From sequence record MK234886: a stretch of DNA of 64,000 nucleotides, one strand, 5' to 3'. Below are positions 1 to 47,471 of the stretch, piece by piece. The DNA is from Escherichia phage AnYang. Numbering within the stretch: position 1 is the first letter of the stretch; each line of letters begins with the position of its first letter. A program made the position numbers and the translations under genes. The notes under the pieces are model-generated. The model had not been told where the DNA came from. It was given only the letters and a program-made list of their open reading frames with translations, and did no database searches.

Positions 1-130
1 CGAACATCTGTGCTTTAAAATTATTCCATGAACCTTGGTCGGCAATGAAATCCCAATCAGAATTTTCGATATACTTACTTTCAATCAGACCAGCATGGTG
101 CAGTGCACGAGAACCAATAACTAACATCAT
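1..130 (-). CDS. hypothetical protein, 5' part only (3' end lies beyond window start)
   Basis: ATG at 128-130 (minus) with GAGGAAA RBS upstream; reading frame MMLVIGSRALHHAGLIESKY... stays open to position 1. Confidence 0.4.
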   Translation of the reverse strand, partial: MMLVIGSRALHHAGLIESKYIENSDWDFIADQGSWNNFKAQMF

Positions 131-416: not shown

Positions 417-445
417 ATAGTAACACGTATTTTTAGAGTTGTACA
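417..445 (-). promoter_or_regulatory. sigma70-type early promoter (TGTACA-N17-TACTAT, TG-extended) on minus strand
   Basis: hexamers read on minus strand; -10/leader/RBS module near-identical to the one at 56099-56158. Confidence 0.45.
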
Positions 446-762
446 TCACTTCTGCAATATTCTAAAAATAATTTATCGTTGTCTACCGTATCCCAACGAC
501 GCCAAGATGGATTCCAGACCAGAGCGTTGTCACCACAATCATTGAGCTTAAAATGGTCGTAGTACATAGCTATACGTTTAGTCTCGTCGCCAGAGAACCC
601 CAGTATAGGCTCACCGTGGGTATGATACATATGATGGTGCATTGAGAGGTCGCATTTGTAAAACATCTCACGTTTACCACGAACGAACAAGAAGGCTTGC
701 CCATTCATATAGAATTCTTTATCTGTTTTCAAAAGATATTTGAATACTGAATCTTTATGCAT
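433..762 (-). CDS. hypothetical His-rich protein (SMHHHMYHTHGEP); ORF track start 783, start 762 preferred
   Basis: internal ATG at 762 has AGGAGG RBS with 4-5 nt spacer; ATG at 783 has weaker signal. Confidence 0.5.
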   Translation of the reverse strand: MHKDSVFKYLLKTDKEFYMNGQAFLFVRGKREMFYKCDLSMHHHMYHTHGEPILGFSGDETKRIAMYYDHFKLNDCGDNALVWNPSWRRWDTVDNDKLFLEYCRSDVQL

Positions 763-792: not shown

Positions 793-1020
793 TTATTTTC
801 CTAACGAAACACGAGTAGGTTTTTTACCAAAATAGTCCTCATAAGAACCATCTAAACGACCCGCTTTAGACCGACAATATGAATCGTACTTTTTGTAATA
901 AGTCATCTCAGTATTATAACGTGGGTGTCTATCAGCCATAATAATACTTAGTGGCCAACCTTTGGCATAATCGCGAAGACCATTTATTTTACGAATGTAT
1001 CGTTTTTTCAATTTTAGCAT
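793..1020 (-). CDS. hypothetical basic protein (75 aa)
   Basis: ORF track; start ATG overlaps last codon and stop of upstream paralog E (ATGCTAA), translational coupling. Confidence 0.5.
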   Translation of the reverse strand: MLKLKKRYIRKINGLRDYAKGWPLSIIMADRHPRYNTEMTYYKKYDSYCRSKAGRLDGSYEDYFGKKPTRVSLGK

Positions 1021-1238
1021 GAGCTTGGGTACCAGATTTTACCATCGGAACGAGCAACGAAGGTGCGACCAGCTTCTTCACCATAACAAGAGCTATTCAG
1101 CCAATCTTCGAGACGAACTTCACCGTCATAATCATCGAGCTCAACGCCAAAATCCTGAGCAGAAGCCATATCTTTTACTTTCTTATACAGTGCAGCCAGT
1201 TCAAGTGCAGCTTTTTCTAATTCATTAATATCAGTCAT
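1014..1238 (-). CDS. small acidic protein, paralog E of C-terminal W-x-S-S-Cys family (74 aa; also internal WLNSSC)
   Basis: internal ATG at 1238 with GGTGA RBS overlapping stop of paralog D; ends ...GKIWYPSSC. Confidence 0.6.
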   Translation of the reverse strand: MTDINELEKAALELAALYKKVKDMASAQDFGVELDDYDGEVRLEDWLNSSCYGEEAGRTFVARSDGKIWYPSSC

Positions 1239-1248
1239 TTTTATCACC

Positions 1249-1458
1249 TTAGCAAGACATAGAGGAGCTAAACCAGAAACCTTCACCTTCTGGAATACCG
1301 TAATCATCACGGGCCCATTCGTAATCATCATATTCCGGACTAGAAGCTGGAATATATTCTTCGCCACCAGCGTGGAAGTGTTGACCTGTTTCGTCAGCCA
1401 CGGACTGGCCTTTACGTACTAATTCACGGATTTGTTTTTCAATTTCATCAATAGTCAT
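1249..1458 (-). CDS. small acidic protein, paralog D (69 aa), ends GFWFSSSMSC
   Basis: ORF track; AAGGAAA RBS overlapping stop codon of paralog C. Confidence 0.6.
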   Translation of the reverse strand: MTIDEIEKQIRELVRKGQSVADETGQHFHAGGEEYIPASSPEYDDYEWARDDYGIPEGEGFWFSSSMSC

Positions 1459-1467
1459 TTTATTTCC

Positions 1468-1665
1468 TTAGCATTCGTAAGAGGAGGACACCCAAGAGGT
1501 ACCACTAATAGTAATACAACCGTTATAAAGCGTGATATGTCGTTCTAGGTCACGAACACCATCGATATAGATATCAGCTTCTTCGCGTTCTTCTTTACAA
1601 ATCTGGATAACGTTTTCAATAGCTGCGGCTGCAGTACGGATTGCACAATCTAGTTCACGAGACAT
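1468..1665 (-). CDS. small acidic protein, paralog C (65 aa), ends TSWVSSSYEC
   Basis: ORF track; AAGGAA RBS overlapping stop codon of paralog B. Confidence 0.6.
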   Translation of the reverse strand: MSRELDCAIRTAAAAIENVIQICKEEREEADIYIDGVRDLERHITLYNGCITISGTSWVSSSYEC

Positions 1666-1674
1666 AATAATTCC

Positions 1675-1956
1675 TTAACATTCAGAAGAAGAGGACACCC
1701 ATCCACCATTTTCTAGGCTGGTGGTGTAATCATGTTGGTTTACAATAGCGTACTGAGCTTCACCGTATTCTTCCCAGTGGGCAAGGTCGGCTTTCAGGGC
1801 GCCAGGAGAATAATAGTCACCGCCCATACCGCGAGCAGGGTATATATTAAAATGAGTCTCATATTTGTTAGCAATTTCCTCAGCACGACGAATAGCTTTA
1901 TGAATATCATTTACTGCTTCAGCCAGCTCTTTATTTTTACGGTAATCATTCATCAT
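1675..1956 (-). CDS. small acidic protein, paralog B (93 aa), ends GGWVSSSSEC
   Basis: ORF track; AAGGAAA RBS overlapping stop codon of paralog A; shares KYG/GDY core with paralog A. Confidence 0.6.
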   Translation of the reverse strand: MMNDYRKNKELAEAVNDIHKAIRRAEEIANKYETHFNIYPARGMGGDYYSPGALKADLAHWEEYGEAQYAIVNQHDYTTSLENGGWVSSSSEC

Positions 1957-1965
1957 AGCGTTTCC

Positions 1966-2256
1966 TTAGCACATTGCCGAAGAGGAGACCCAAGCACCGA
2001 CTGTAACGACACCGTTTTCAACTTCACCGCCATTGTTTTCAATTTCATCTTTAAACCACTGGGAGCATTCATAACCGACAGGATAATATGTACGGCCTGA
2101 ACCATAATCACCTGTACCGAATTGGATACCATACTTATCGGCAATAGCTTCACATTCATGTTCGATGGTATTCACTTTATTCAGAAGAGCATAGATAGCC
2201 TTTTCTGCAGATTTCTCATCATTGTGTTCTGGGATTTCAATTTCAATTTTATTCAT
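1966..2256 (-). CDS. small acidic protein, paralog A (96 aa), ends GAWVSSSAMC
   Basis: ORF track; ATGA start/stop overlap with upstream membrane protein gene. Confidence 0.6.
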   Translation of the reverse strand: MNKIEIEIPEHNDEKSAEKAIYALLNKVNTIEHECEAIADKYGIQFGTGDYGSGRTYYPVGYECSQWFKDEIENNGGEVENGVVTVGAWVSSSAMC

Positions 2257-2606
2257 GATTTACATTCCTTAATAAAGGTTTCAAGGTCATTACGATTGGT
2301 TTGTTTTACATACTCATTATAATTAGCCATCGATACAGCATATCTCTTACGGATGGGAGCATTCAAAGCATTTGTATGGCAAATATCATACACTACAGGG
2401 ATAAAATAAGCCACGACAGCCGGAGCGATTATCATATAGAAACCCATCTCAATAGGTGTGACTCCTTCGATTACAGCCATAACCACGGTCATTACCAGGC
2501 CAATTAGGCCGCCAAGCATGGCTGTAACAATCCCTAATAATAAATTGGCACCAATATCATATTCAGCCAATTGATAAACATGTGATGAAAGACTAGGCCG
2601 CTCCAT
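2253..2606 (-). CDS. small membrane protein, two predicted TM helices (117 aa; ORF track start 2780, internal ATG 2606 preferred)
   Basis: hydrophobic stretches GANLLLGIVTAMLGGLIGLVMTVVMAV and GFYMIIAPAVVAYFIPVV; AGAGG RBS before ATG 2606. Confidence 0.45.
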   Translation of the reverse strand: MERPSLSSHVYQLAEYDIGANLLLGIVTAMLGGLIGLVMTVVMAVIEGVTPIEMGFYMIIAPAVVAYFIPVVYDICHTNALNAPIRKRYAVSMANYNEYVKQTNRNDLETFIKECKS

Positions 2607-3135
2607 TTTGAACCTCTTTAGCGTATTCGCGACATTCAGCAATAAAACGATTAAGCTTCCGTTGTTGTTTTCGAATCTCTGATGTATACTCATTAGCCAA
2701 AATAATAAGCTCATCTTTATCGTAATTTTTAATATCCGAATAACTCGGGCGGCGGTCGACCATACCAAAGTGGTCACCATTTTCTAACATCAAATAGCAT
2801 ACTAAATGGTAATCATCGTCAGCATCAACAAGCTGTTTACAATCACTTGGTTCATTTAAAGCGTATACTGAATAGCATAATCCAGCGAATTCCACTCGTT
2901 GAATACCTAGATTTAAGTCAATAATTTCTAAAGCTTCTGCAAAAGAAAGGTCCTCAGCTAAAGCAAAGATAAAAGGTAATTTGCTAGTGTATCCACGGCT
3001 ATTTGTTCGACTTAAGAAATCATTGGAATAACCTAAGTCTTGGCGAATTCTATAAAGAACTGAATTAGTTTCATGGGAAAGACCACTATGCTTAAACCAG
3101 TCAATATTTGATATCAGGTCGTCATATAAACTCAT
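2593..3135 (-). CDS. hypothetical protein (180 aa)
   Basis: ORF track; GGAGAGGAG RBS upstream of ATG. Confidence 0.5.
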   Translation of the reverse strand: MSLYDDLISNIDWFKHSGLSHETNSVLYRIRQDLGYSNDFLSRTNSRGYTSKLPFIFALAEDLSFAEALEIIDLNLGIQRVEFAGLCYSVYALNEPSDCKQLVDADDDYHLVCYLMLENGDHFGMVDRRPSYSDIKNYDKDELIILANEYTSEIRKQQRKLNRFIAECREYAKEVQNGAA

Positions 3136-3158: not shown

Positions 3159-3176
3159 GGGAGACCGAAGTCTCCC
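3159..3176 (-). terminator. stem-loop GGGAGAC-UUCG-GUCUCCC (minus strand)
   Basis: perfect 7-bp inverted repeat with UUCG tetraloop directly downstream of 3184-3777 gene; same hairpin at 4674-4689 and 41242-41259. Confidence 0.5.
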
Positions 3177-3183
3177 AGTAACA

Positions 3184-3777
3184 TTACTTAAGTGAATTAA
3201 TGTAGTCGTCGATATCGGCAGAAGTCGTATCCATTCCAACTTGTGGGCCTTTAAACGTTTCTACACGCAGCAGGGTATCTTCAATATCAATCTTAGTCAG
3301 TGCAGCGATTTCAACAACATCATCGGCAGTAGCAATACCAAGGGCAGCCATATTGCGAGTTTCACGGATGTACTCGAGCTTAACGGCCAGTTCCTGACGA
3401 GAGTCATCAAGTTCCTTGACCTTCAGTTTAATTTCATTACGCATTTCGATATAATCATCGGCCTTCTTACGAAGCTGAGTAGCTGTACGACGATAAAGGA
3501 GGCCAAGTTTAGCATGTACCTGGACATCAGCACCTTCGGCAATCAGTTTACGAATTTCACGTTCTTTAGAAGCGGCAAGCTGGTCTTTTTCATTAGCCAA
3601 CGCACGAATACGTTTTTCTTCATTCACAGACTTAACATGAGCGGTCTGGAGTTCAGTAATTTTATCAATCAGGGTAGAAGCAGCTTTGGTGTATTGGTCT
3701 TCGATTGACAGGTTCTGAGCCATTGCAGTACCCAGTTTAGAACGGATGAATTCAACGATTTTCTTTAAAGTGTTCAT
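3184..3777 (-). CDS. hypothetical coiled-coil protein (197 aa)
   Basis: ORF track; AAGGAAA RBS; heptad-rich charged sequence. Confidence 0.55.
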
Positions 3778-3819: not shown

Positions 3820-3848
3820 ATTATACCCTGTCCTCTGAGGTTTGTAAA
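3820..3848 (-). promoter_or_regulatory. sigma70-type early promoter TTTACA-N17-TATAAT with overlapping stem-loop GAGGACA...TGTCCTC
   Basis: hexamers and inverted repeat read on minus strand upstream of 3184-3777 gene. Confidence 0.5.
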
Positions 3849-4636: not shown

Positions 4637-4673
4637 AACTTTGTGAAATTATTTTTAGTCTAACCCCCAAAAA

Positions 4674-4689
4674 GGAGACCGAAGTCTCC
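4674..4689 (-). terminator. rho-independent terminator GGAGAC-UUCG-GUCUCC + U-run (minus strand)
   Basis: hairpin followed by TTTTTGGGGG on minus strand, downstream of 4695-5303 gene. Confidence 0.55.
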
Positions 4690-4694
4690 TTTCA

Positions 4695-45974: not shown

Positions 45975-47471
45975 ATGCAAATTCAAGTACATTTTGATAA
46001 TTTTAGTCATGTTCGTATTGAATGCGATGAATCTACATTCTACGAACTCAGAGACTATTTTAGCTTTGAAGCTGATGGATATAAATTCAACCCTAAATTT
46101 CGTTATGGGCAATGGGATGGTCGTATTCGTCTTCTGGATTATAACCGTAAACTGCCTTATGGATTGGTCCCTCAAATTAAAAAGTTCGCTGAACAATTTG
46201 AATACTCTCTGTGGATTGACCCACGTATTCTTGAACAGGAAGATATTTCTCGTGAAGATTTTGACTCATGGGTAGCTTCTCAAGAAATTTATTCAGGGTC
46301 TACCAAGATTGAGCCTCATTGGTATCAGAATGAAGCCGTATACAACGGCCTGACAAAACGTCGCGCAATTCTGAATTTACCTACATCCGCAGGTAAATCA
46401 TTAATCCAGGCGCTCCTGAGTCGATATTACGTTGAGAACTATGAAGGTAAAATCCTTATTCTGGTTCCTACTACTGCACTTGTCGACCAGATGATTAATG
46501 ACTTCATCGATTATCGTCTGTTCCCTAAAGCAGCAATGCTTGGTATTCGTTCAGGTACTGCTCGTGATTCTGATGCAATGATTTACGTTTCGACTTATCA
46601 AACTGCTATTAAGCAACCTAAAGAATGGTTTGCTCAGTTTGGTATGTTTATGAACGACGAATGCCATTTGGCTACAGGTAAATCTATTTCTACTATCATC
46701 GAAGGCCTAACCAACTGTATGTTTAAATTTGGTTTGTCTGGTTCTTTAAAAGATGGTAAAGCTAATTTAATGCAATATATGGGTTTGTTTGGTGACGTGT
46801 TTAAACCTGTTTCCACCTCCCAATTGATGGAAGAAGGACAGGTTACAGACCTTAAAATCAACAGTATTTTCCTTCGATACCCAGACGAATTCACAGTTAA
46901 GATGAAAGGTAAAGATTACCAATCAGAAATTAAAGTCATTACTAAGGCTACTCGTCGTAATAAATGGGTTGCTAATTTAGCTGTTAAACTCGCTAAGAAA
47001 GAAGAGAACGTATTCCTGATGTTTAAAAACATCGAACACGGTAAAACTCTTTTTGAAATGGTTAAAGAGCAACATAAAGAAGTTTATTATGTATCAGGTG
47101 AAGTTAATACCGAAACGCGTAATGCTCTGAAAGTAATGGCGGAAAATGGTAAGGGTATTATTGTTGTGGCAAGTTATGGTGTGTTCTCTACTGGTATTTC
47201 CGTTAAGAACCTTCACCACGTTGTATTTGCTCATCCGGTAAAATCTAAAATCATTGTACTCCAGACAATTGGTCGTGTACTCCGTAAACATGCTTCTAAA
47301 TCAACAGCACAAGTATGGGATATCATCGACGACATGGGTGTTAAGCCTAAATCAGCTACGGCTAAAAAGAAATATGTTCATTTGAACTACGCCCTCAAAC
47401 ACGCTTTAGAACGTATTCAACGTTATGCTGATGAGAAATTTAATTACGTAATGAAACAGGTGGATTTATGA
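45975..47471 (+). CDS. uvsW: UvsW DNA/RNA helicase
   Basis: Walker A PTSAGKS, DEAH-like box DECH, 498 aa. Confidence 0.9.
   Translation: MQIQVHFDNFSHVRIECDESTFYELRDYFSFEADGYKFNPKFRYGQWDGRIRLLDYNRKLPYGLVPQIKKFAEQFEYSLWIDPRILEQEDISREDFDSWVASQEIYSGSTKIEPHWYQNEAVYNGLTKRRAILNLPTSAGKSLIQALLSRYYVENYEGKILILVPTTALVDQMINDFIDYRLFPKAAMLGIRSGTARDSDAMIYVSTYQTAIKQPKEWFAQFGMFMNDECHLATGKSISTIIEGLTNCMFKFGLSGSLKDGKANLMQYMGLFGDVFKPVSTSQLMEEGQVTDLKINSIFLRYPDEFTVKMKGKDYQSEIKVITKATRRNKWVANLAVKLAKKEENVFLMFKNIEHGKTLFEMVKEQHKEVYYVSGEVNTETRNALKVMAENGKGIIVVASYGVFSTGISVKNLHHVVFAHPVKSKIIVLQTIGRVLRKHASKSTAQVWDIIDDMGVKPKSATAKKKYVHLNYALKHALERIQRYADEKFNYVMKQVDL

Follow-up and report, generated by a model that had tools for sequence, protein, structure and literature searches.

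A Dhakavirus protein of the T4 e.3 family: a predicted inner-membrane hairpin with a putative shared C-terminal tag

In this study, we show that the open reading frame at positions 2253..2606 of Escherichia phage AnYang (minus strand, as are all features mapped below) represents the T4 e.3 family in Dhakavirus and codes for a non-structural accessory protein. The window, by which we mean the whole 64,000-nucleotide stretch of record MK234886 that was analysed, belongs to a Dhakavirus, i.e. a JS98-like T4-type phage, and the CDS, stop codon included, encodes a protein of 117 aa (13 kDa) that runs from MERPSL to FIKECKS. As such, it is an ordinary member of a family that was already known, being present as orf130 in JS98, annotated as 'similar to T4 e.3' in VR5 and VR7 and represented by phrog_2330: the orthologous counterpart of T4 gene e.3 and, by prediction, a small inner-membrane protein. 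The explanation that we favour as a whole, at a probability of about 0.5, is that of an e.3-family membrane hairpin whose C-terminal tag would serve as a docking end. The initial annotation had described a small protein with two hydrophobic helices within a packed gene block, which stands, and had proposed it as the membrane partner of the acidic paralogs encoded downstream, a role that our comparison of lineages renders improbable.

The phrog_2330 profile matches the protein over its full length (E 3.8e-45, residues 1-117/117 against profile positions 1-122/122), and pairwise BLASTP aligns it collinearly with T4 e.3 (1-117 vs 1-118, E 2e-10), albeit at an identity of only ~24%. A profile built exclusively from Dhakavirus sequences retrieved just seven matches from 1.84e9 representative proteins, T4-e.3-type sequences among them (P0021, E 1.3e-6), while a word-indexed protein search returned 16 proteins, all of them Dhakavirus-type relatives. 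Foldseek of the AlphaFold2 model against BFVD likewise yielded family members only (E 4e-12 and 1e-8), the remaining hits having an E of at least 0.28. Judging from such sequence comparisons, the e.3 family is confined to T4-like phages. Searches against Pfam, NCBIfam, PADLOC and the PDB gave no match that provides a functional hint; TssN, at 15.7 bits, fell short of its cut-off of 30.3, and EccCa, NuoL and PDC-M48A also remained below threshold (Pfam/NCBIfam/PADLOC), and Foldseek against the PDB returned nothing below E 1.6, its best hits being the generic hairpins of TolQ/ExbB, AhlB and c-rings.

The T4 record lists e.2, e.3 and e.4 as predicted membrane proteins, and both e.3 and e.4 resemble the AnYang protein in their length of ~120 aa, an M-x-K-P N-terminus (as M-x-K/R-P kept out to T4 e.3), two transmembrane (TM) helices followed by a basic stretch, and a C-terminal tail of the form ...F-[IV]-x-x-C-R-K. 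The locus corresponds as well: according to the annotation tables of JS98 and T4 e.6/e.5-type genes are situated 5' and nudE/e 3' of the gene, all on the same strand, and the window has the order e.6 (3184-3777), e.5-like gene (2593-3135) and e.3-type gene. In T4, however, e.2 is located directly downstream of e.3, whereas in Dhakavirus a five-gene paralog array and six more genes intervene, and the two tandem copies of T4 (e.4 and e.3) compare with a single one in Dhakavirus, in addition to an e.2-type relative. Genomes carry 1-3 members of this 2-TM family in tandem, and across genera these share 13-51% identity with the same architecture.

We give next to no credence to a chance hydrophobic ORF that is non-functional and merely situated in a packed region. 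It is true that the depositor of IME281 annotated a shorter ORF of 267 nt and that the mechanically longest ORF, 2253-2780, disagrees with the start proposed here; against this stand the full-length conservation across genera, the annotation of the gene in both T4 and JS98, and a good Shine-Dalgarno sequence, AAAGAGG (2613..2619, within the 3' end of the upstream gene), at the correct spacing of 6 nt from the ATG at 2606. Furthermore, comparison with orthologues yields a dN/dS of ~0.2-0.3, and this purifying selection indicates a real gene. Literature searches on e.2-e.8, on T4 genome reduction and on MZ375356, together with the CRISPRi-ART preprint, yielded nothing about e.2-e.8. The deposited genome of the T4 mutant T4_583L is missing e.2-e.7, which suggests that these genes are dispensable in T4, the viability of this mutant being taken from its record title only.

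Kyte-Doolittle hydropathy over 19-residue windows confirmed the two hydrophobic helices, with two peaks above 1.6 at residues ~17-55 (maximum 2.31) and ~51-77 (maximum 2.05), and the AlphaFold2 model (pLDDT 81) has helices at residues 18-47, 51-54 and 57-116. Other depositors have labelled orthologues or e.3 homologues as 'putative membrane protein' or 'transmembrane region'. The N-terminal tail (residues 1-18, 2553..2606), which carries a family-wide M-x-K/R-P...Y motif and varies between alleles, is predicted to be cytoplasmic. It is followed by a TM helix 1 rich in Gly and small residues (GIVTAMLGGLIGLV; residues ~19-46, 2469..2552, from hydropathy and the AlphaFold2 model), and by a TM helix 2 (residues ~54-76, 2379..2447) with a conserved P62 and a YFIP motif, after which comes the basic cluster IRKR. 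In the model, the C-terminal helix (residues 77-117, 2256..2378) runs on from TM2. With a single K/R in the N-terminal tail, none in the loop and three consecutive ones right after TM2, hydropathy and the positive-inside rule suggest an inner-membrane helical hairpin, in which the N-terminal tail and the ~40-residue C-terminal helix would be cytoplasmic and the periplasmic loop would span ~7-9 residues. The N-terminal tail is net acidic, which counts against the proposed topology. The pattern of two helices with a cytoplasmic C-terminal helix, in ~115-125 aa, is the same in 13 aligned e.3-family members.

An N-in/C-in protein with two TM helices, small residues in TM1 and a charged cytoplasmic C-terminal tail also calls to mind the class II holins and pinholins, such as S21-68 of phage 21, which has two TM helices, N-in/C-in, in ~70 aa. 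The basic cluster after TM2 and a locus within the 'e.x' cluster, named after lysozyme e, would fit a lysis regulator of this kind, be it holin, pinholin or antiholin-like. We nevertheless regard it as very unlikely, as the protein has 117 aa instead of ~70, has no hit to a holin model in any of Pfam, PHROGs and NCBIfam, and is encoded in an apparently early-type operon with neither endolysin nor spanin neighbours, lysozyme e in JS98 being located ~6 kb downstream with ~15 genes in between. Moreover, T4-type phages already possess holin T, with which they lyse together with antiholin RI (rI is annotated in JS98), and T4 without e.2-e.7 exists as a propagated clone, T4_583L.

As described initially, the gene belongs to a tightly packed block. 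This block is co-directional, and a strong internal promoter is absent from it. Its first 14 nt coincide with the 3' end of the upstream gene (2593-3135), stop codon included, its TGA stop overlaps the start of the first paralog (paralog A, 1966-2256) in an ATGA at 2253..2256, and the successive junctions between 2593-3135 and 433-762 amount to -14, -4, +9, +9, +9, +10, -7 and +30 nt, those between paralogs being TAAGGA stop/Shine-Dalgarno junctions. Yet, this tight packing is normal for T4-like phages and poor evidence of a joint function with the array: in the annotated 50 kb of JS98, 38 of the 101 adjacent same-strand pairs overlap, 20 of them by 4 nt. Such 4-nt overlaps account for 20% of JS98 junctions, and an ATGA coupling is generic in these genomes. 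The transcript that reaches the gene probably starts at the best promoter-like match, a sigma-70/T4-early-like TTTACA-17-TATAAT (11/12) at 3820..3848, upstream of e.6. Between e.6 and the e.5-like gene, a stem-loop (GGGAGAC-UUCG-GUCUCCC, 3159..3176; -14.3 kcal/mol for a 55-nt fold) may possibly serve as an attenuator or RNA-stability element.

In Klebsiella phage KLB31, the depositor attached the note 'shock protein A' to the e.6 homologue. In E. coli, PspB and PspC are small membrane partners of PspA with one TM helix each, and, like these, the AnYang protein is a small inner-membrane protein encoded 3' of a ~200-aa coiled-coil protein, here e.6. It differs in having two TM helices and in being separated from e.6 by the stem-loop and the e.5-like gene. 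A PspA-like nature of e.6 was rejected, as a profile of 7 e.6 sequences reached a probability of 0.1% against E. coli PspA in hhalign, Pfam PspA_IM30 was not matched at E up to 0.1, and a PDB sequence search offered no support. The PspA sequence used in the comparison matches PDB 4WHE at E 4e-82.

Directly 3' of the gene and in the same direction are five acidic W-x-S-S-x-x-C paralogs (1014..2256, consisting of 1966-2256, 1675-1956, 1468-1665, 1249-1458 and 1014-1238). We consider it improbable that the 2-TM protein is a dedicated membrane partner or anchor of these soluble proteins, held in fixed proportion to them by translational coupling. Besides the ATGA overlap with paralog A, this idea finds support in six lineages in which a ~120-aa, tag-bearing 2-TM gene abuts or overlaps the first paralog, namely Dhakavirus, Mosigvirus, Kanagawavirus, Moonvirus, Winklervirus and Klebsiella phage kv_tblp5, with 13-51% identity between the 2-TM proteins. 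However, such adjacency among related genera may equally reflect inherited gene order, and when the co-occurrence of the 2-TM gene and the W-x-SS-C family was checked across genomes, with each genus represented by one or a few annotated genomes, no consistent pairing was encountered. T4 and other Tequatrovirus have kept e.3 (and e.4) with e.2 directly 3' and without a paralog, an arrangement of e.2-e.5 DNA carried by 505 records; a scan of T4 1-50 kb and 63-73 kb with the paralog HMM found no paralog (best E 0.18), and among 60 evenly spread paralog matches none was from Tequatrovirus (0/60). Like T4, U115 has e.3 without the array, the 2-TM genes of Karamvirus PG7 are located ~2 kb downstream of its array, and Aeromonas phages Aes012 and ZPAH1 as well as Erwinia phage Hallingskeid carry paralogs without a 2-TM gene nearby. 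In MX01, where the 2-TM allele has been swapped, paralog A is still 98% identical, which indicates that the two do not co-vary. The e.3 gene and the array are thus separable across the sampled lineages. Instead, it is the DUF7277-DUF7275 gene downstream (JS98 orf122 type; its 5' end is found at 1..130 and it continues beyond the window) that is the most constant neighbour of the array, accompanying 11 of 12 array loci and having been lost together with the array in T4 and U115. As such, a partner of the array should be looked for downstream, in the DUF7277-DUF7275 protein, rather than upstream in the protein under study.

What the protein does share with several of its neighbours is its C-terminal end. 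The last residues, YVKQTNRNDLETFIKECKS (2256..2312), form what we refer to as the tag, of which the final 10 residues are invariant in 15/15 aligned Dhakavirus-type sequences. Its core, L-x-x-F-[IVL]-x-x-[C/M/V]-[RK], is common to e.2-, e.4- and e.5-like proteins and to a family of small soluble proteins, and an hhalign comparison of the AnYang family profile with JS98 e.2 aligned only the last 19 residues, at a probability of 90% and E 1.4e-6. An HMM built from the C-termini of 13 2-TM proteins detected 41 of 732 ORFs at a threshold of 4.5 bits, against 1.55 in shuffles; in 40 of these 41 the match is located at most 14 aa from the C-terminus, and all 40 are e.x-cluster genes (40/40). At least four protein architectures carry the tag, whereas it was not found in the rest of the 64-kb window or in another 50 kb of JS98. 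Since copies from one genome are only 42-64% identical in nucleotides and use different synonymous codons for conserved residues, the conservation is at the protein level. A DNA-level junction repeat or a Shine-Dalgarno artefact is ruled out by these codon differences and by copies situated away from the Shine-Dalgarno position. In some members, the codons for the K-E of the tag (AAGGAA) also provide the ribosome-binding site for the gene that follows.

The upstream gene (2593..3135; JS98 orf131, phrog_8788) encodes a soluble e.5-like protein that ends in a copy of the tag (...LNRFIAECREYAKEVQNGAA), although its match in AnYang is weak at 4.6 bits. An e.5-like gene is present 5' of the 2-TM gene or genes in six of the seven sampled lineages with an uninterrupted 2-TM block, these six being T4, Dhakavirus, Kanagawavirus, Moonvirus, Winklervirus and kv_tblp5. 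Because the AlphaFold2 model of this protein, based on a 23-sequence alignment, reached a pLDDT of only 36.6, its C-terminal helix is not established. Further downstream, orf124 (433..762) encodes a small soluble protein that ends in FLEYCRSDVQL, a weak copy of the tag, and aligns with small tag-bearing proteins from Moon, PG7, kv_tblp5 and KLB31. To judge by these alignments, the invariant end of the AnYang protein, ...L-x-x-F-I-x-E-C-K/R, is a tag that several different proteins of the e.2-e.5 cluster have in common, the product of the upstream gene included, which is new here. It would follow from a broader, rather speculative proposal, which we deem unlikely as it stands, that the tag is a docking module in the nudE-to-e.6 cluster of T4-like phages, marking at least four unrelated N-terminal architectures that bind each other or one common inner-membrane target. 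The heads would then be the soluble e.5-like proteins, an e.2-like domain with two TM helices, the e.3/e.4-like TM hairpins and the soluble family of ~95-117 aa.

The other half of the protein behaves differently. In MX01 and vB_EcoM_005, the gene carries another N-terminal/TM allele with 53-56% aa identity to the AnYang protein, while the flanking genes are 94-99% identical; dS in codons 1-76 amounts to 1.2-2.4 between these alleles, compared to 0.13-0.42 for those neighbours. Across both alleles, on the other hand, the C-terminal residues are invariant. These comparisons indicate that recombination swaps two deeply diverged alleles of the N-terminal and TM part, which is likewise new here, and a dN/dS below 1 would show this to be an exchange of old alleles, not ongoing positive selection. 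Such exchange of diverged TM alleles among near-identical phages may suggest a role that faces the host or a competitor, e.g. exclusion or counter-defence.

This leads to a stand-alone small membrane effector, where the TM hairpin acts on a component of the host inner membrane and the tag is only a family relic, and which we consider possible but doubtful. T4 Imm, which blocks DNA entry of a superinfecting phage, would be one example of such an effector, and neutralising a membrane-acting host defence another. A predicted inner-membrane hairpin that is small, encoded in an early operon as part of the accessory genome and apparently dispensable in T4, with members in 1-3 tandem copies per genome and two diverged TM alleles recombining among near-identical phages, as is typical of functions facing host or competitor, suits this explanation. 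Imm itself is also small, early, non-essential and a predicted two-helix inner-membrane hairpin, and makes a plausible analogy for an envelope-directed accessory role. It has, however, only 78-83 aa, lacks both the ~40-residue cytoplasmic helix and the C-terminal tag, and is encoded at another locus. Homology to Imm was rejected, the e.3 HMM giving a weak match (E 0.0015-0.01) and hhalign against JS98 Imm a probability of 6% over 18 TM residues only. Neither PADLOC nor the other functional searches returned a match that would speak for an effector, and the dN/dS below 1 fits exchange of old alleles rather than positive selection. The strictly invariant cytoplasmic tail argues that the tail is functional, and not the hairpin alone.

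In the reading that we prefer, the e.3-family hairpin with a docking end, expression of the protein would probably be driven by the early-type promoter 5' of e.6, within one packed operon. Its mechanism, which we put at about 25-30% likely, would be that the hairpin acts as a membrane anchor and the C-terminal end as a docking tag, L-E-T-F-I-K-E-C-K-S, whose hydrophobic residues are spaced i, i+3, i+4 and i+7. Candidate partners are the soluble e.5-like protein encoded immediately upstream, the e.2-like membrane proteins and the small soluble family, and it is on the cytoplasmic side of the membrane that these tag-bearing proteins may assemble together or share a single binding target. The resulting complex could alter the host envelope or how it responds to infection. 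Since the N-terminal/TM half is swapped between phages as a cassette, it presumably makes contact with a variable component of the host or of competing phages. The W-x-SS-C paralogs downstream would be neighbours by descent and not obligatory partners.

As it stands, the gene matters little, being the orthologue of a long-annotated T4 ORF with the normal gene packing of T4-type phages. If the proposal of a docking module is true, however, the cluster would constitute a 'tagged effector' system that is modular and recombines, its heads, TM or soluble, being interchangeable. In T-even phages, accessory genes make up a large and still unexplained share of the genome; the tag on otherwise different proteins of one cluster and the diverged TM alleles could make the gene a useful way into them.

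The first 6 kb of the window align over their full length to genomes of Dhakavirus, a genus of JS98-like T4-type phages (IME281, the closest relative, 96%; JS98, 92%), and the minus strand carries every gene in this part. In JS98 the gene order runs e.8, orf133, e.6, orf131, orf130, orf129-126 (the paralogs), orf125-120, e.2, orf118, nudE and e, and the ORF studied here (2253-2606, minus strand; 117 aa, MERPSLSSHVYQLAEYDIGANLLLGIVTAMLGGLIGLVMTVVMAVIEGVTPIEMGFYMIIAPAVVAYFIPVVYDICHTNALNAPIRKRYAVSMANYNEYVKQTNRNDLETFIKECKS) is the counterpart of orf130. The longest mechanical ORF in its frame begins at 2780, not at 2606. It is the ATG at 2606, however, that has an SD sequence (AAAGAGG) 6 nt ahead of it, that is annotated likewise in JS98, MX01, VR5 and vB_EcoM_005, and that keeps the family-wide N-terminus M-x-K/R-P. 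The IME281 record (locus L002, 3253-3519) gives the orthologue as 267 nt, starting from an internal Met in TM helix 1. Because such an ORF would cut into the first helix, we doubt this annotation, and the 354-nt version with its SD and conserved N-terminus is probably the correct one.

The ATG sits 14 nt within the upstream e.5-like gene orf131 (2593-3135, minus strand), while, at the other end of the ORF, its TGA stop and the ATG of paralog A (1966-2256, minus strand), the first of five acidic W-x-SS-C genes, overlap as ATGA. The initial annotation of a small protein with two hydrophobic helices, joined to paralog A by this overlap, was right as a description of the ORF, its hydropathy and its junctions. 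It had also called the block from 2593-3135 down to orf124 (433-762, minus strand) tightly packed, which the measured gaps confirm (-14, -4, +9, +9, +9, +10, -7 and +30 nt); the paralogs, with a pI of 4.2-5.1, are parted by TAAGGA stop/SD junctions. Such packing is ordinary for JS98, where the 101 pairs of same-strand neighbours within an annotated stretch of 50 kb include 38 that overlap, 20 of them by 4 nt, and it is therefore not distinctive. The only strong promoter-like site on the minus strand lies upstream of e.6 (3848-3820; TTTACA-17-TATAAT, an 11/12 match), and the ORF is presumably expressed early from there. Between e.6 and orf131 a stem-loop with a UUCG tetraloop is found, GGGAGAC-UUCG-GUCUCCC (3159-3176, minus strand), and a hairpin sequence resembling it is also present at 4671-4692. 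The e.6 gene (3184-3777, minus strand) encodes a largely coiled-coil protein of 197 aa, with 51-74% identity across genera. Its KLB31 homologue carries the depositor's note 'shock protein A'; we rejected PspA as its identity, as Pfam, PDB sequence search and hhalign gave no similarity.

The closest known entity to the encoded protein is T4 e.3 (and e.4). An end-to-end match to phrog_2330 (function unassigned) was obtained at E 3.8e-45, and tblastn against 50,697 phage records found the gene in 291. About 58 of these are of the Dhakavirus type, at 60-97% identity, and the remainder (22-56%) are Dhakavirus second-allele, Mosigvirus and Tequatrovirus records. The Tequatrovirus match is gene e.3, with which the protein is collinear over its whole length in pairwise alignment (24% identity, E 2e-10); it also aligns, more weakly, to the neighbouring e.4. 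In VR5 and VR7 the depositors' label for the gene reads 'similar to T4 e.3', and in the original T4 record e.2, e.3 and e.4 are each a 'conserved hypothetical, predicted membrane protein'. Tested separately, sequence, architecture and position all place the ORF in the T4 e.3 family. In a search of 1.84 billion representative proteins, a profile of the Dhakavirus sequences hit no more than seven, all of this type, and therefore the family is confined to T4-like phages. Since near-identical proteins (96-97%) are present in public databases, the gene itself is already known; its family is known too, though uncharacterised, and the protein is an ordinary member. No functional lead came from Pfam, NCBIfam, PADLOC or structure searches; Imm, class II holins and PspB/C were considered as identities and rejected, as the protein tested as a member of none of them, leaving analogies only. 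The deposited genome of the T4 mutant clone T4_583L (MZ375356.1, locus L016, 151.8 kb) is missing a stretch that begins in the 3' part of nudE and takes in everything up to and including e.7, from which we infer that the e.2-e.7 cluster, and hence this family, is dispensable for laboratory propagation. The same clone is also without many other accessory genes.

The initial annotation had further proposed that the protein could be the membrane partner of the soluble acidic paralogs. With HMMs of the paralogs and of the 2-TM family, we scanned loci of annotated genomes, each genus being represented by one or a few. Arrays of two to five paralogs occur in Dhakavirus, Mosigvirus (WFK), Karamvirus (PG7), Kanagawavirus (KLB31), Moonvirus, Winklervirus (X20), Klebsiella phage kv_tblp5, Tulanevirus (Aes012) and Ishigurovirus (ZPAH1), and a single copy in Erwinia phage Hallingskeid (366 kb). 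The best support for a partnership is that a 2-TM gene of ~120 aa adjoins or overlaps the first paralog in six sampled array lineages. However, the two families separate cleanly. In T4 and U115, e.5-e.4-e.3 is followed directly by e.2 and the locus holds no paralog; the paralog HMM found nothing in T4 at 1-50 kb and 63-73 kb (best E 0.18). T4-type e.2-e.5 DNA is present in 505 records; paralog A gave 367 hits in total, with no Tequatrovirus among 60 evenly spread rows. In PG7 the 2-TM genes (gp132-135) are found some 2 kb downstream, not upstream, of the array, in Aes012 nrdD precedes the paralogs, and no tagged 2-TM gene was found near the paralogs of ZPAH1 and Hallingskeid. The observation stood; its interpretation as a whole is supported in part, and the partnership itself we regard as unlikely.

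Instead, the array is tracked by a ~310-aa protein with DUF7277 and DUF7275 (JS98 orf122, phrog_2141; locus L001, 3082-4041). In 11 of 12 array loci, distant Aeromonas phages included, its gene is on the array's strand and downstream of it, and it is missing along with the array from T4 and U115; in the window, its 5' end (1-130, minus strand) runs off the left edge. This makes it a better companion candidate for the paralogs than the 2-TM gene, and together with the clean separation of the families, it means that the adjacency of 2-TM gene and array is most simply explained as inherited gene order. As for the paralogs themselves, all five in the window (1014-2256, minus strand) end in a Cys following W-x-S-S, and the subtypes 'G-x-W-[VL]-S-S-S-x-x-C' and '...D-G-x-[IV]-W-x-x-S-S-C' recur across genera, with the array down to one copy per subtype in the distant phages Aes012, ZPAH1, PG7 and X20. 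If the 2-TM protein has an operon partner, the upstream gene is a better candidate than the paralogs, an e.5-like gene preceding the 2-TM gene(s) in T4, Dhakavirus, Kanagawavirus, Moonvirus, Winklervirus and kv_tblp5.

Kyte-Doolittle windows show two clear hydrophobic peaks (2.31 and 2.05), and an AlphaFold2 model (pLDDT 81), built on 15 sequences of the family, places helices at 18-47, 51-54 and 57-116, so that the protein is predicted to fold as a hairpin whose second helix extends into a long C-terminal helix. K/R residues number one in the N-tail and none in the loop, with three in a row (IRKR) right after TM2. Because of this distribution, the positive-inside rule would put both the N-tail and the C-terminus in the cytoplasm, and the loop of ~7-9 residues in the periplasm, for an N-in/C-in inner membrane protein.

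The C-terminal helix ends in a tag that is shared more widely, T4 e.5, e.4 and e.3, orf131 and the present protein all ending in F-[IV]-x-E/x-C-R/K. Thirteen 2-TM proteins were aligned, and an HMM of their last 15 aligned positions was searched against 732 ORFs, all those of 40 aa or more in the loci studied and in the whole 64-kb window. At 4.5 bits or more it matched 41 ORFs, in 40 of which the match lies at most 14 residues from the C-terminus, against 1.55 on average for shuffled sequences and 1 for reversed ones. Matches in the window are at 2256-2312, 2593-2660 and 433-470 (minus strand), and further ones in L001, L003 (T4), L004 (U115), L006 (PG7) and L011-L014; all fall within the nudE-to-e.6 cluster, bar one spurious, non-C-terminal ORF (46009-46275), and a further 50 kb of JS98 added none outside it. 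In its wider form the motif, L-x-x-F-[IVL]-x-x-C/M/V-R/K, is found in several T4-like genera on at least four architectures: e.3/e.4-like hairpins (one to three tandem copies per genome), e.2-like proteins (a ~80-aa soluble domain and two TM helices), e.5-like soluble proteins (180-270 aa) and a soluble family of ~95-117 aa, to which orf124, ending FLEYCRSDVQL, appears to belong. When the profile of the present protein is compared with JS98 e.2 by hhalign, the alignment is limited to the last 19 residues (90% probability). Within one genome the tags have 42-64% nucleotide identity and encode the conserved F, I, C and R by different codons; therefore, conservation is at the protein level. In several members the K-E pair (AAGGAA) doubles as the ribosome-binding site of the next gene. 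In the model, the hydrophobic residues of the tag are spaced at i, i+3, i+4 and i+7, a helix-helix contact pattern. T4 e.2 (103 aa, L003 4653-4961) resembles a truncated version of the 162-aa U115 e.2 (L004 3360-3848), and its lost tag-bearing end (...NNFITECRKLK) is a 36-aa ORF between e.2 and nudE (L003 4473-4583), which points to a frameshift in the reference strain of T4. In PG7 the e.5-like gene (gp141/gp140, L006 3355-3878) is seemingly split into two ORFs of 79 and 95 aa, without the tag.

While the tail is constant, the remainder of the protein is not. Compared with MX01 and vB_EcoM_005, protein identity is 53-56%, whereas the flanks are far closer (e.5-like gene, 94-96%; paralog A, 86-98%; e.6, 99%), and codons 1-76 (2379-2606) reach a dS of 1.2-2.4, versus 0.13-0.42 in the flanking genes. 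VR5 is a recombinant, with an N-tail of the second type and a TM2 of the first. Given this divergence between near-identical flanks, and the VR5 recombinant, the N-tail and TM hairpin exist as two old alleles, moved by recombination among otherwise near-identical phages. The last 10 residues are invariant across the 15-sequence family alignment, MX01-type alleles included, so that the cytoplasmic tail is kept constant while N-tail and hairpin vary. With a dN/dS of about 0.2-0.3, this is a real gene under purifying selection, and its variation suggests that what the hairpin faces is itself variable.

The protein belongs to the T4 e.3 family, is small, conserved and constrained, and has two hydrophobic helices. 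Encoded in a packed, co-directional accessory operon, it combines an invariant, tag-bearing tail with a cassette-like variable hairpin. How might it work? The hairpin may anchor a cytoplasmic docking helix in the membrane, and this helix would link the protein with further products of the cluster that bear the tag, or with a single shared target; we give this mechanism as a whole a probability of about 25-30%. The main rival, a stand-alone, Imm-type envelope effector in exclusion or counter-defence, is about equally probable. A holin-like role is highly improbable. As far as our literature searches reach, neither the tag nor the allele swap has been described, and both are side observations from a limited genome sample. 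Should the shared tag be a real interaction motif, it would offer a modest upside.
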